A stretch of 64,000 nt of DNA from Kiritimatiellia bacterium (GCA_041653875.1 JBAZEM010000017.1:10-64009); one strand, 5' to 3'. Counted from the stretch's first letter, positions 35,319 to 43,352 are shown. The notes: generated by a model from the sequence alone, not told the origin. Numbers and translations are program-made.

Positions 35319-36095
35319 TTATGCCCCGTGCACGGCGGCGGCCAGTTCGCGCACCAGCGCGGCCAGGCGGCCTTTGCGGGTCGCCTCCACCAGGGCGCTG
35401 CCGACCACGACGGCATCGGCATGCCGGGCCGCGGCGCGCGCTTGCTCGCCGTCGCTGATCCCGAACCCGGCGGCGATGGGCAAATCCGTGCAGGTTCGAA
35501 GCTGCTCTATATTTTTCCTGGCGTTGAACACCAATCGTTTGCGCGCGCCGGTTACGCCTTTTACCAGGATGTAATACACGAACCCATCAGCTTCCGCCAG
35601 CAGCCGCCGGGCGCGCTCCGGCGAGGTGGTCGGCGCAATGAGCTGAATAAACAACAGGCCGTGGCGTTTCATCGGCGCGCGCAGCTCGTCCGCTTCCTCG
35701 AACGGCAAATCCACCACCAGGAGGCCGTCGATGCCCGCGCGCTTCGCGTCCCGGCAGAGGGCGTCATACCCGTACCGGAACAACGGGTTGGCATAACTGA
35801 ACAGGATCATCGGGGCCTTGAAGGAGCGGCGCAGGCGCGCGGCCATGGCCAGAATCTGTTTCAGGTTCACGCCGGATGCCAGGGCGCGCCGGCCCGCGGC
35901 CTGGATGGCGGGGCCGTCGGCCGTCGGGTCGGAAAACGGCACGCCGATCTCCAGAATATCCAGTCCGCTGGCCAATGCCGCGCGAAAGTTCCGTTCCGAT
36001 GTTTTCAAGTCCGGATCGCCGGCCGTCAGGTAGCCGATCAGCGCCTTGCGGCCTTGCGCCCGCAGGGTTTGAAATGTGTCTGTGATTCGGTTCAT
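35319..36095 (-). CDS. trpA: Tryptophan synthase alpha chain
   Basis: ALIGYLTAGDPD ... LEIGVPFSDPTADGP ... signature, 258 aa. Confidence 0.92.
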   Translation of the reverse strand: MNRITDTFQTLRAQGRKALIGYLTAGDPDLKTSERNFRAALASGLDILEIGVPFSDPTADGPAIQAAGRRALASGVNLKQILAMAARLRRSFKAPMILFSYANPLFRYGYDALCRDAKRAGIDGLLVVDLPFEEADELRAPMKRHGLLFIQLIAPTTSPERARRLLAEADGFVYYILVKGVTGARKRLVFNARKNIEQLRTCTDLPIAAGFGISDGEQARAAARHADAVVVGSALVEATRKGRLAALVRELAAAVHGA

Positions 36096-36100
36096 AAGAA

Positions 36101-36549
36101 GAAATTCAGTGATTTAGCGATTCAGTGATTCATTGATTTAAATCGACACTGGTGTCCGGTTTAATTATTACCAAAGATGATTTGATGCCTATAAAATAAG
36201 GGCGTAATCACAACAATGTTTTTCGCCGATTTCAATTCAAAGACGGTAATTTGTGGCGGCAAAATCGTTGATGTATGAAAAAACCCTTAATAATTGATGG
36301 CACACCCTTGTTGCTGTTTACAGGATTCTACACTTTTTAAATCGCTTGGTATTCGGGAAAACGCTGATTTTATTGATCTTTTTAATGTGCATTGCAGAGT
36401 CTGTCCCACAGAATGAACGCAACCCTTTATTTATAGGCTTTTTTAACCGGACAGTAGTGTTAAATCGAATAAAGTTAGGTTGCATCAAATGTTTCAAAAA
36501 ATGTCTCATAAATCACTCAATCACTCAATCGCTGAATCACTGAATTTCT
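36101..36549. repeat. Hairpin cassette: inverted CACTGAAT tandem-word arms bracketing a 365-bp AT-rich insert between trpB and trpA
   Basis: Arm1 36101-36140 gaaattcagtgatttagcgattcagtgattcattgattta. Arm2 36510-36549 aaatcactcaatcactcaatcgctgaatcactgaatttc, ~35/40 complementary. Interior ~35% GC. Confidence 0.75.
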
Positions 36550-37739
36550 TTCAGTTTCTTCTTGTATGCCACGATGTTGTCCAGGTCCTTGTCGCCGCGG
36601 CCGGACAGGTTGATGATCATCGCGGCGCGGGCGCCCAGTTTGCGCGCCCGTTTTTTGGCTTCCGCCAGGGCGTGGCTCGATTCCAGCGCCGGCAGAATTC
36701 CTTCCAGGCGGGTGAGATCGTCGAAGGCCCGCAGGGCCTGCGTGTCGGTGACGGAGCAATATTCGACCCGCGCGCTGTCGGCCCAGTGCGCATGCTGCGG
36801 TCCGACGCCGGGATAATCCAGGCCGGCGCTGACCGAATGCGCGTTCCGCACCTGGCCATCGGCATCCTGGAGCAAATAACTTTTCGCGCCGTGCAGGATG
36901 CCGATGCGGCCGGCGCCGATGCTGGCGGCGTGTTTGCCGGTGCGGATGCCGAAGCCCGCGGCTTCGACGCCGACCAGCCGGACTTCCGAATCGTCCAGGA
37001 AGGCCGAAAAGATGCCGGCGGCGTTACTGCCGCCGCCCACGCAGGCGATGACCATGTCCGGCAGGCGCCCGGTTTTTTCGAGGATTTGCGCGCGGGCTTC
37101 CGTGCCGATCACGCTCTGGAAAGTCCGCACCATGCTGGGGTAGGGATGCGGGCCGGCCACGGAGCCGATCACGTAGAAGGTGTCGTCCACGCGCGCGACC
37201 CAGGCGCGCATGGCCTCGCTCATGGCGTCCTTGAGGGTGGCCGTGCCGCTGTGCACGGGATGAACCGTGGCGCCGAGGAACTGCATGCGCTGAACGTTGG
37301 GCGCCTGGCGCCGGATGTCCTCCGCGCCCATGAACACTTCGCATTCCATGCCGAAGAGGGCCGCCGCCGTGGCGGTGGCCACGCCGTGCTGGCCGGCGCC
37401 CGTTTCGGCCATGAGGCGCGTCTTGCCCATGCGGCGGGCCAGCAGGGCCTGGCCGATCGTGTTGTTGATCTTGTGGGCGCCGGTATGGTTCAAGTCCTCG
37501 CGTTTGAGGTAAAGGCGCGCGCCGCCATAGGCTTTCGTCAGGCGCTCTGCCAGATAAAGCGGCGAAGGCCGCCCCACGTAATCCCGCAGGATCGCGTGGA
37601 ACGACTTGTTAAAAGCCGGGTCCTTCAGCGCCGCTCGATAGGCCTGCTCCAGCTCGATGAGCGCCGGCATCAGCGTCTCGGCCACATAGCGTCCGCCATA
37701 AGGCCCGAAATGGCCTTGGGCATCCGGTTCGTGTTTCAT
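36537..37739 (-). CDS. trpB: Tryptophan synthase beta chain
   Basis: [13 protein letters not shown]-lysine region [22 protein letters not shown]. Start placed at the second ATG of MMKHEP (AGGAG SD 6 nt upstream). The ORF track extends to a TTG at 37874. Confidence 0.9.
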
Positions 37740-41861: not shown

Positions 41862-43315
41862 TTTAGTTGCAGTCCATTGGCCGCCAGCGCCACGGCGTTT
41901 TGCATGCCGCGTGCCTTGTGACAGGTTTCTTCGAATTCTTTTTGCGGATCGGAATTATAAACGACGCCGCCGCCGGCTTGGATGGCGATGGCGCCGCCGG
42001 AAATTTCCAGGGTGCGGATTGTGATGGCGAAATCCATGCTGCCGTCGTAGCTGATGTAACCCAGCGCGCCGCCGTAGGCCCCGCGCGGTTCGTTTTCCAG
42101 CTCGTGAATGATTTCCATGGCGCGAATCTTGGGCGCGCCCGAAAGCGTGCCGGCGGGGAAGGTGGCGCGGAGCACGTCGGCGGCGTCACAGCCCTGGCGC
42201 AGGATGGCCTCCACGTGCGAGACAATATGCATGACGTGGCTGTAGCGCTCGATCGTCATGTAGTCGCGCACTTGTACGCTGCCGGTTTCCGCCACGCGCC
42301 CGAGGTCGTTGCGGCCCAGGTCCACCAGCATGACGTGCTCGGCCTTTTCTTTTTCGTCGGAGAGGAGTTCGTCGGCCAATTGGCGGTCCTGCTGTTCGGT
42401 GGCGCCGCGCGGGCGCGTGCCGGCGATGGGCCGCAGTTCCACGCGGCTGCCCGTGAGCCGCACCATGACTTCCGGTGAAGAGCCCACCAGGGCTTGGTCG
42501 CCGATTTTGAGGAAATACAAATAGGGCGAGGGATTCAGCAGGCGCAGGGCGCGGTACAACTGGAAGGGCGGCACTTCCGAGCGGGCGCTGAACCGTTGAC
42601 TCGGGACCACCTGGATAATATCGCCGGCCGTAATGTATTCCTTGGCCTTGCGGACGATGGCTTGGTATTGGGCGCTCGTCATGTTGGAGGCGAATGTCAC
42701 CGGCGGATAGACGCGGTTTTCAGTGTGCGGCGCCGGTTGTTGGAGGATCGTTTCGATGGCCGCGATTTTCCGGCAGGCGGCCTCGTAGGCCTGTGCCGGA
42801 GTGGCGGCGCTCGCGGGTCGGGAGCAGACGATGATCTTGAGCGTGTTGCGCAGATTGTCGAACACGATCAGGTTATCCACTTTCAGGAAACGGCTGACCG
42901 GCCGGCTCCCGCCGCGGACCGGCTTGGGCGCCGGCAGGCGTTCGAACTCGCGGACGGCCTCGTAGCCGATGTAGCCCACAGCGCCGCCGAAAAAGCGGGG
43001 CAGGCCCGGCGTGGGGGCCGCGCGCACGTTCTGGTACACGGGCCGCAGACGCCGGAGCAATTGCGGATCGGCGCCGCCGGGCGCGTCGGTGTGTTCGATC
43101 TCGAATAAAAGCTCGGGTTCGACGCCGATGAAGGAATAGCGTCCCCAGGTTTCGCCGCCCTCGATGCTTTCGAGCAGGAACACGTTCGGGTTATCCGCGA
43201 AGCGCCGCAGCACGGAGACCGGCGTCTCGAGATCGGCCAGCACCTCCTTGCAGACCGGGATCAGGTCGTATTTTTCGGCCAGCGCGAGGTAATCCTTTAG
43301 GGTCATGGGTTGCAT
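41852..43315 (-). CDS. trpE: Anthranilate synthase component I
   Basis: 487 aa chorismate-binding enzyme; LLESIEGGE, GYISYD, GAYGGALGY motifs. Confidence 0.9.
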   Translation of the reverse strand: MQPMTLKDYLALAEKYDLIPVCKEVLADLETPVSVLRRFADNPNVFLLESIEGGETWGRYSFIGVEPELLFEIEHTDAPGGADPQLLRRLRPVYQNVRAAPTPGLPRFFGGAVGYIGYEAVREFERLPAPKPVRGGSRPVSRFLKVDNLIVFDNLRNTLKIIVCSRPASAATPAQAYEAACRKIAAIETILQQPAPHTENRVYPPVTFASNMTSAQYQAIVRKAKEYITAGDIIQVVPSQRFSARSEVPPFQLYRALRLLNPSPYLYFLKIGDQALVGSSPEVMVRLTGSRVELRPIAGTRPRGATEQQDRQLADELLSDEKEKAEHVMLVDLGRNDLGRVAETGSVQVRDYMTIERYSHVMHIVSHVEAILRQGCDAADVLRATFPAGTLSGAPKIRAMEIIHELENEPRGAYGGALGYISYDGSMDFAITIRTLEISGGAIAIQAGGGVVYNSDPQKEFEETCHKARGMQNAVALAANGLQLKNG

Positions 43316-43318
43316 GGT

Positions 43319-43352
43319 GTTTCTATATATAGAAACAACCGGGCGCTGTCAA
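43319..43352 (-). promoter_or_regulatory. Putative trp promoter/operator
   Basis: On the coding strand: TTGACA, then 15 nt, then TATATA. The -10 lies inside the perfect 18-bp palindrome GTTTCTATATATAGAAAC, which ends 3 nt before the trpE ATG. Confidence 0.45.

Follow-up and report, generated by a model that had tools for sequence, protein, structure and literature searches.

A trp operon whose every intercistronic spacer holds an inverted repeat raises the question of whether such repeats belong to the operon as signals or have settled in it as passengers. The operon lies at positions 35,319 to 43,352 of a 64,000-nucleotide stretch of DNA from a Kiritimatiellia bacterium (GCA_041653875.1 JBAZEM010000017.1:10-64009; the whole stretch is hereafter called the window), and most of its junctions carry a hairpin cassette with arms built from a short tandemly repeated word. 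In the reading judged probable here, the spacers house small insertion elements that form hairpins, members of a lineage-wide population of the intervening sequence (IVS) type residing in mRNA operons. The evidence lies in the anatomy of the cassettes, their restriction to intergenic DNA, their gain and loss among relatives, their nesting, their dispersal as whole units, the joint inheritance of a gene with its word, and purifying selection on that gene.

Genes were assigned with Pfam and are colinear on the minus strand in the order trpE-(IVP)-trpG-trpD-trpC-trpF-trpB-trpA (Table 1), as a first-pass annotation of the window had stated. That annotation had also counted seven junctions, six of them with a distinct element; all junctions are indeed filled, but seven trp genes make only six junctions, five with tandem-word hairpins and one (trpF/B) with a hairpin like the repetitive extragenic palindromic (REP) elements. 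The GC-rich hairpin that it had placed at trpF/B instead of a word array is present as an inverted doublet and belongs to a separate repeat family, with more copies upstream of trpE (43419-43510) and in one relative (L083). No leader or attenuator is apparent in the sequence upstream of trpE, and the promoter-like site read there was not reported by a consensus promoter scan.

At the other five junctions a forward array of a 7-9 nt word is followed by a loop and by the reverse-complement array, the build that had been described for them. All five cassettes fold far more stably than dinucleotide shuffles (z -3.5 to -9.1), and the duplex geometry claimed for them holds as judged from arms and folds; the minimum free energy fold of the trpE/G spacer is closed by the array stem. 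The arms are AT-richer than REPs, the spacers have 35-46% GC, below genome GC, and the 3' arm frequently ends in ...TTTCTT ATG. Coding sequence runs into the arrays at several points. The last codons and stop of trpE now lie inside the 5' arm of the trpE/G cassette (the TrpE C-terminus reads ...LQLKNG* in the window and ...L(E/Q)DH* in relatives), and this arm consists of AAAGA and 4-5 heptamers, with a second partial array at 41776-41800. The 3' end of the IVP gene in the same cassette runs into the 3' arm, its TAA stop being part of a CCATTAA word and lying 23 nt ahead of the trpG ATG, and the trpB stop codon sits within the 5' arm of the trpB/A cassette. Since two independent metagenome assemblies of the same strain agree with 100% identity throughout the cassettes, these are not an assembly artefact; both matching contigs end at a cassette (L081 at window position 36147, L082 at 39600), where breaks are expected for repeats. 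A search of Rfam gave no family for any cassette or loop, only sub-threshold chance matches to eukaryotic miRNA and snoRNA hairpins, and no rRNA in the 64-kb window.

Table 1. Features of the trp operon and of its junction elements, in transcription order. Arms: length and complementarity of the inverted arrays; fold: predicted energy, with z against dinucleotide shuffles.
Feature	Coordinates	Strand	Assignment and remarks	Arms and loop	Fold
Promoter-like TTGACA ... TATATA	43326..43352	-	Just upstream of trpE ATG; read from sequence		
trpE	41852..43315	-	Pfam Chorismate_bind and Anth_synt_I_N		
trpE/G cassette, 5' arm	41825..41865	-	mRNA sense: AAAGA leader, then TGGTTAA/TGGTTGA/TGGTCAA heptamers	Arms 41 nt, 85% complementary; loop 488 nt containing an open reading frame	-183 kcal/mol, z -3.5
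IVP/S23p-type four-helix-bundle gene	41320..41757	-	PF05635 E=5.9e-15; TIGR02436; in trpE/G loop		
trpE/G cassette, 3' arm	41296..41336	-	CCATCGA/CCATTAA/CCATCAA/CCATTGA heptamers ending ...tttcttATG = trpG start		
trpG	40718..41296	-	Pfam GATase		
trpG/D cassette	40618..40704	-	GGGAGTAT-family hairpin, about 90 nt, dispersed unit; aligned whole with three other copies	Arms 36 nt, 83% complementary; loop 14 nt	-49.2 kcal/mol, z -5.4
trpD	39600..40604	-	Pfam		
trpD/C cassette	39521..39598	-	Second GGGAGTAT-family hairpin copy	Arms 27 nt, 74% complementary; loop 24 nt	-39.7 kcal/mol, z -5.5
trpC	38704..39504	-	Pfam		
trpC/F cassette	38553..38673	-	Hairpin of 9-nt word CACGAAACA/CACGGAAC; related copy 52736-52825	Arms 21 nt (about 30 bp in fold), 100% complementary; loop 79 nt	-57.6 kcal/mol, z -9.1
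trpF	37871..38509	-	Pfam		
trpF/B element	37756..37849	-	GC-rich REP/REPIN-like inverted doublet (ATAGCCGG...GGCTCTAC / GTAGAGCCG...CGGCTAT)		-23.9 kcal/mol, z -4.0
trpB	36537..~37739	-	Pfam; start taken from 400-aa gene call on identical contig		
trpB/A cassette	36099..36550	-	8-nt word ATTCAGTG/ATTGAGTG; arms at 36509-36550 and 36099-36140	Arms 42 nt, 90% complementary; loop 368 nt	-125 kcal/mol, z -5.7
trpA	35319..36095	-	Pfam; start codon 3 nt past trpB/A 3' arm (...tttcttcttATG)		

Arrays with a period of 7-9 nt are mostly intergenic (24 of 32), though intergenic DNA makes up only 18.7% of the window (binomial p = 6.9e-12), and several of the 'genic' arrays are 3' ends of open reading frames (ORFs) running into an array. 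By spacer class, arrays were counted at 13/29 co-directional, 4/5 convergent and 0/4 divergent spacers. Within co-directional spacers the 5' arms begin from 20 nt before to 45 nt after the upstream stop, and the 3' arms end 0-43 nt ahead of the next start, with one exception (172 nt). At least eight further instances of the architecture were found in the window, most of them in the lpxI-lpxB-glycosyltransferase cluster with the words AATGCAG, AACATCG, TCAGGAG, GGTTCAC and ACGAAACAC; the first three of these families occur 2-4 times each in the window, and ACGAAACAC is found again at 52736-52825. Solo arrays without a partner lie at 4572-4629, 10305-10401 and 43884-43941. Both the recurrence in the lpx/glycosyltransferase cluster and the description as a genome-wide feature placed outside genes were correctly anticipated by the first-pass annotation. 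Its further statement that each spacer has a different word is true only in part and overstated, because GGGAGTAT is common to the trpG/D and trpD/C cassettes and families recur across the genome. As with the heptamer arrays of Xanthomonas, these are imperfect intergenic tandem arrays that occur as convergent inverted pairs. Array density is 5 per 10 kb in the window, against 2.3-3 for close relatives and 0 for a relative with 42% TrpF identity, and by this falloff the elements are lineage-restricted. AATGCAG arrays, inverted pairs included, also occur in metagenome-assembled genomes (MAGs) of Planctomycetaceae and Acidobacteria.

Further repeats were recorded alongside. Nested inverted heptamer arrays were seen at 2400-3260 of the Planctomycetaceae MAG locus (L134) and at 2428-2502 and 4000-4128 of the Acidobacteria one (L135), with the words AGCGCAG, TGGCTAG, AATGCAG (12-18 copies) and CAGGATT/TGAATCC; in L134 a 21-nt unit (aaaaaagtcctaacgttagtc) is also repeated about 12 times in tandem. 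Small GC-rich dispersed repeats lie in the window at 3770-4204, 14881-15108, 23735-24352, 34017-34157, 43419-43510 and 63400-63503 and comprise CGCCGGGTCAGGGGACCCGGCCTACA palindromes, TCCGCC..GGCGGA pairs, 'ttaggcc...gtagccg...ctacaa' composites and GTAGAGCCGG doublets. These repeats take up other spacers, in one case sitting nested within an AATGCAG cassette loop, and their families are also found in the trp spacers of relatives.

Gain and loss were followed in about 17 trp loci identified by a metagenome scan with TrpF, with Trp proteins 83-93% identical; the reference genomes that come closest by TrpD (63-64% identity; Victivallales, Lentisphaerae, Syntrophaceae) contain no cassettes and were therefore useless for comparison. 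Proteins of the window have exact counterparts among NCBI MAG proteins named Kiritimatiellia. The trpE/G spacer measures 555 nt in the window versus 5-23 nt in four relatives (L085, L089, L093, L106), in one of which (L093) the trpE stop and trpG start overlap as ATGA. At trpC/F the spacer is 7 nt in six loci and 121-338 nt in others, where hairpins of other words or GC-rich repeats are found; trpF and trpB overlap in L087 and L088, and the trpB/A spacer is 5-10 nt in L089 and L090. The relatives' trp loci do hold hairpins, but any given junction is empty in some of them and differently filled in others, and across the clade no junction retains one and the same element. Because junction content is not conserved among relatives, the ancestral trp operon was compact and translationally coupled, and the cassettes are lineage-specific gains with quick turnover. 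Judged from these loci, they are gain/loss insertion elements and not conserved regulators. The suggestion of a mobile IVS-like element, already made in the first-pass annotation, agrees with this presence and absence of cassettes junction by junction in close relatives and with the recovery of the ORF-bearing cassette in eight contexts, described below.

The same loci bear on the other proposal of that annotation, namely that the cassettes punctuate or stabilise individual cistrons. On such a view hairpins would have been selected for RNase III cutting into cistrons, or for 3' stabilisation of the kind attributed to REP and bacterial interspersed mosaic elements (BIMEs), and would govern how strongly the trp enzymes are expressed relative to one another. 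Stable stems of 21-42 bp do stand beside stop and start codons, five of the six trp junctions are filled, arrays lie in transcribed spacers and in none of the four divergent promoter spacers, and the homologous IVS stem of Coxiella is cut by RNase III (PMC4990558). Close relatives, however, have compact junctions of 5-7 nt or overlapping ones free of any element, or carry unrelated elements at the same junction. The sense strand shows no excess of G.U over A.C mismatches, and some start codons lie directly against a long stem without a Shine-Dalgarno sequence, an arrangement that looks costly and not designed. Selection for punctuation is accordingly regarded as unlikely, and this part of the annotation is not upheld.

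Dispersal as insertion elements, by contrast with selected signals, is visible in the GGGAGTAT family. Its four copies at different junctions align across both arms and loop with 73% column identity, from which it follows that the family spreads as a whole unit of ~90 nt. In L085 and L086 a GGGAGTAT hairpin lies within the loop of a GTGTTCG-word hairpin, and in L106 the outer hairpin stands alone. At trpB/A, L083 has the same arms as the window with a loop of only about 20 nt, so the window loop (36141-36508), with ~350 nt extra, represents a further nested insertion. This loop is AT-rich (35% GC), has inverted repeats of its own (36133-36164/36442-36473 and 36187-36202/36423-36438), and holds ORFs of 63-65 aa without a Pfam match; no similarity to it was found elsewhere in the fetched DNA. 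Two promoter-like sites were also noted within it.

The trpG/D spacers of relatives contain GACAGAC-type words. A separate element of 330-350 nt, absent from the window, was observed in this spacer in four of them (L085 764-1105, L089 999-1359, L093 5517-5860, L117 ~3360-3665); it has conserved nested inverted repeats (...gaattcg...gcaagtt.ggc...cgcgaagc...), gave no Rfam match at E<=1, and has the appearance of a structured RNA or of some other mobile element.

The trpE/G cassette differs from the others in carrying a gene, which the first-pass annotation had correctly placed in the four-helix-bundle family of 23S rRNA IVSs. A family profile of 22 IVP sequences matches the S23p structures PDB 2RLD and 2GSC, whereas a phmmer search of the PDB with the single protein gave no match; no relative of the gene was found in viral contigs. 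With a dN/dS of 0.12-0.20 against orthologues, similar to trpG, the IVP gene is under purifying selection. One subclade (L113-L117) retains it between trpE and trpG, in L113 with its stop overlapping the trpG start, and the heptamer copy number of the cassette differs between the window, L113 and L117.

Homologues 59-88% identical were found in unrelated operon spacers. The contexts are trpE-IVP-trpG; ABC ATPase-IVP-FtsX permease; IVP upstream of clpB; dapF-IVP-uvrC (Nitrospira MAG); nuoF-like-IVP-gltD-like (Verrucomicrobia MAG); IVP after recJ; and ABC ATPase-IVP-permease, the organisms, where the source names them, including Kiritimatiellia, Nitrospira and Verrucomicrobia MAGs. The gene points the same way as the host genes in each of the eight contexts, with (T/A)GATGGT-type (TGATGG-type) heptamers upstream and ACCATCA/ACCATTG-type (CCATCAA-type) heptamers downstream, up to the next ATG. 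Tails encoded by the array (...HQPSTINH, ...IDHQPLTIDH) form the C-terminus of 46/120 IVP homologues. A different IVP subfamily, in L119, has a different flanking word (TAATGAC-like). Because the word itself is conserved and not only the pairing, sequence-specific recognition of the word is suggested. The possibility that the word is generally copied from the target site, raised by 'gaccattga' at the end of trpE, was rejected because the same word accompanies the gene in other phyla; the resemblance may reflect a target preference.

A second IVP gene is present in the window (45076-45723, minus strand). At 45240-45292 this ORF contains an in-frame hairpin of 9-nt period, AATGGACAA AATGGACTT AATGGACAG ... 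TCCATTCCG TCCACAAGG TCCATTTCC, placed between the four-helix-bundle part (TIGR02436) and a 'four helix bundle suffix' domain (TIGR04258), which suggests that tandem-word hairpins can persist in coding DNA if their period is a multiple of three. Searches for degraded IVP genes in the loops of the ORF-less cassettes by tblastn gave insignificant matches only, and a search with the peptide of the AATGCAG array (HSAFCIL x6) returned only spurious ORFs of 48-74 aa (Planctomycetaceae, Acidobacteria and other MAGs), none of them PF05635.

These data on units and words also weigh on an origin in situ without any mobility, in which slippage would amplify a local 7-9 nt word and template switching (quasipalindrome correction) would copy the array inverted. 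Array copy number does differ between orthologous cassettes (trpB/A in the window and L083; trpE/G in the window, L113 and L117), and empty sites resemble the words, as at the end of trpE ('gaccattga' against CCATTGA) and in the trpB/A spacer of L089 ('cattgagg..attacagtg' against ATTGAGTG/ATTCAGTG). A slippage bias of heptamers is moreover a published idea, cited in PMC4679880. Such an origin nevertheless seems improbable, given that the same ~90-nt unit, loop included, stands at different junctions and nested in another element, that one IVP subfamily is accompanied by the CCATCAA word in different phyla, and that word families recur many times per genome and in different phyla.

Conservation of the word, and not merely of complementarity, with an IVP subfamily across phyla is also what would be expected if the words were DNA or RNA sites for a word-specific protein, possibly the pentameric IVP, that controls downstream translation or maintains the element, the hairpin being secondary. 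Solo arrays exist, and TAACTGA direct repeats at start codons have been proposed as translational regulators (PMC4679880). Most word families of the window lack an associated protein gene, however, and arrays are usually found in inverted pairs, so that protein-binding arrays are considered quite improbable. Intrinsic terminators or attenuators inside the operon, to which the A-tract and U-rich tract flanking the arms (AAAGAA ... TTTCTT) might point, can be set aside as highly improbable, as no enrichment of terminator-like sites was seen (12, against 12.4 expected), no such site matches a full cassette stem (one short match lies inside the trpC/F 3' arm), the stems and loops are far larger than those of intrinsic terminators, and termination at every junction would abolish downstream trp expression. 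A promoter scan of the window showed no enrichment either.

Under the preferred reading, that of IVS-type insertion elements, the arms, imperfect tandem arrays of a 7-9 nt word, would belong to elements that reside in mRNA operons and not in rRNA. The trpE/G cassette would represent the ORF-bearing form, with an AG-rich leader, (T/A)GATGGT heptamers, a PF05635 (S23p/Avd-like) gene and ACCATCA heptamers at the next start; gene and word are inherited, and would spread, as one piece, always co-oriented inside host operons. The other four cassettes are hairpins built alike but lacking an ORF; the GGGAGTAT unit at least moves whole (~90 nt), and such units insert into each other's loops. Array length would later drift through slippage. 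The elements would settle between a stop and the next start codon, leaving genes unbroken, and would be selfish or neutral, tolerated rather than needed; with a word period that is no multiple of three, the arrays offer stop codons in every frame. Because stems of 21-42 bp are of the size that RNase III cuts, the polycistronic trp transcript is probably segmented at the cassettes, and cleavage by RNase III, by analogy with the Coxiella IVS, is plausible. The trpG start would be re-opened by ribosomes that read the IVP ORF on into the 3' arm, and the ORF-less hairpins may depend on, or descend from, ORF-bearing elements.

Several observations weigh against this interpretation. No consistent target-site duplication was found on comparing filled with empty trpE/G and trpB/A sites, and no transposase, reverse transcriptase or REP-associated tyrosine transposase (RAYT) was found among the annotated genes, which make up roughly half of the window ORFs; nor was a RAYT gene found in the related loci. 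Measured against miniature inverted-repeat transposable elements, the cassettes have the inverted termini, while neither the consistent target duplication nor the transposase was found. Complementarity of the flanks is significant in 6/9 IVP contexts and weak in three that have short arrays. The second IVP gene has no flanking arrays, and the words of the ORF-less cassettes were found beside no IVP gene. Stem mismatches on the mRNA strand are not biased (G.U versus A.C, 23 v 26 and 8 v 6), so nothing in them shows that the RNA duplex is under selection. The filling of five of six junctions in one operon could, finally, reflect some advantage.

The reading of the cassettes as IVS-type elements could be extended, although the wider form is doubtful: PF05635 (S23p/IVP, Avd-like) genes with cognate arrays would be a widespread, so far unrecognised class of autonomous selfish elements, every protein subfamily recognising a word particular to it (CCATCAA here, GACAGAT in Coxiella, TAATGAC-like in L119), the 23S IVSs would be rare rRNA copies of them, and the ORF-less hairpins would be miniature non-autonomous derivatives. 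Possible further derivatives would be the heptamer arrays found in cyanobacteria, Xanthomonas, Planctomycetes and Acidobacteria. If this were true, the orphan IVP family would gain a function in recognising or propagating repeats.

Other features of the window were noted as follows. A defence-type island (44001-51659) lies directly upstream of the trp operon and encodes a PD-(D/E)XK protein, the second IVP, PRiA4_ORF3, McrC, a McrB-like AAA protein and DUF1016/YhcG; relative L113 has a Fic gene in place of part of it. A 6S RNA gene (11847-12027, minus strand, 63 bits) and a tRNA gene (19622-19711, minus strand) were the only Rfam matches above the gathering score in the window. A region of 1.65 kb (6301-7953) beside a PIN-domain gene has lower GC and long plus-strand ORFs, and no gene in the codon-usage-based map.

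To our knowledge, heptamer arrays and 23S rRNA IVSs have each been known for about 30 years, have no accepted origin or function, and have been treated separately. The locus and its relatives indicate that the IVS-type unit, made of an S23p gene, word-specific arms and a long stem, is portable and resides mainly between the cistrons of ordinary operons in several phyla, that operon spacers are saturated with similarly built ORF-less hairpins, which turn over from one species to another, and that a compact, translationally coupled operon tolerates such insertions. The role of the PF05635 protein, the movement of the elements and the segmentation of colonised operons by RNase III are now testable questions. 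For annotation the cassettes are a hazard: they break metagenome assemblies, and gene callers extend ORFs into the arrays (trpE, trpB, IVP tails).

Among known systems the more distant resemblances may be taken first. Elhai et al. reportedly described, in 2008, very small hairpin repeats of Nostoc nested in tandem heptamer repeats and in each other; the GC-rich 'ttaggcc...gtagccg...ctacaa' units in cassette loops here (63400-63503) resemble these small dispersed repeats, but phylum and sequences are different. Correia/NEMIS elements of Neisseria and ERIC/IRU elements of enterobacteria are miniature inverted-repeat elements in transcribed spacers, whose RNA hairpins are processed (by RNase III for Correia), altering the stability of flanking mRNA. 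The cassettes share with them the miniature inverted-repeat form and the location in transcribed spacers; these elements, in contrast, have a fixed sequence, defined terminal inverted repeats and a target duplication, in place of tandem-word arms, and no sequence relationship to the cassettes. Both groups are named as related classes in the REPIN paper (PMC3116915).

REPINs provide a general model of hairpin doublets as mobile units (PMC3116915). REPIN and REP/BIME sequences, like the cassettes, are inverted doublets that form hairpins in extragenic space, operon spacers included, and vary between strains; REP/BIME hairpins stabilise upstream mRNA. The trpF/B 'GTAGAGCCGG' doublet looks like an element of this type. 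REPs consist of a single conserved GC-rich palindromic unit mobilised by RAYT, whereas the cassette arms are AT-richer tandem words; that conserved unit is not a module of the cassettes, and only the trpF/B element is REP-like.

IVS elements and intergenic heptamer arrays are already known kinds, and the feature, which the first-pass annotation did not know to have been described for mRNA operons, is not entirely new: intergenic heptamer arrays, inverted pairs included, have been published for Xanthomonas, cyanobacteria and Beggiatoaceae (PMC4692102, PMC4679880). The GGGAATC arrays of Xanthomonas include 70-75 convergent inverted pairs (Rehm 2015, PMC4692102), and the TAACTGA arrays of Beggiatoaceae, cyanobacteria and Bacteroidetes adjoin start codons and provide stops in three frames (MacGregor 2015, PMC4679880). 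Together with the short tandemly repeated repetitive (STRR) sequences of cyanobacteria, these arrays resemble the present ones in being imperfect tandem heptamers confined to intergenic DNA, in often adjoining starts or overlapping ORF ends with stops in all frames, and in showing the same word in unrelated phyla. The window differs in the coexistence of many word families with periods of 7-9 nt, in the regular pairing of arrays into long hairpins, in nesting, and in the tie of one family to a protein gene. The available parts of PMC4692102 and PMC4679880 contain no link of arrays to PF05635 genes or IVSs, and a limited literature search found no paper tying PF05635 genes to heptamer arrays outside rRNA; the portable combination of an S23p gene with word-specific heptamer arms, colonising mRNA operons across phyla, is apparently new.

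The closest counterpart is the S23p-type 23S IVS of Coxiella burnetii and Leptospira. In C. burnetii the terminal inverted repeats pair into a 28-bp stem with the S23p ORF in the loop, AGAAGA precedes tandem GACAGAT heptamers, two or three according to the strain, and the stem is cut mid-stem by RNase III (PMC4990558). The trpE/G cassette likewise has inverted repeats that form a long stem (41-nt arms, 85%), a loop that holds a PF05635/S23p ORF in the sense orientation of the host transcript, tandem heptamers of varying copy number behind an AG-rich leader, and a sporadic distribution. The Coxiella stem is an RNase III substrate, and the cassette stem a candidate for one. The host site is helix 9, 25 or 45 of 23S rRNA for the IVSs and an intercistronic mRNA spacer here, and the word is GACAGAT in Coxiella and CCATCAA at trpE/G. 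Lastly, the ORF of Coxiella is decaying, whereas that of the trpE/G cassette evolves under purifying selection and continues into the 3' arm beside the downstream start.

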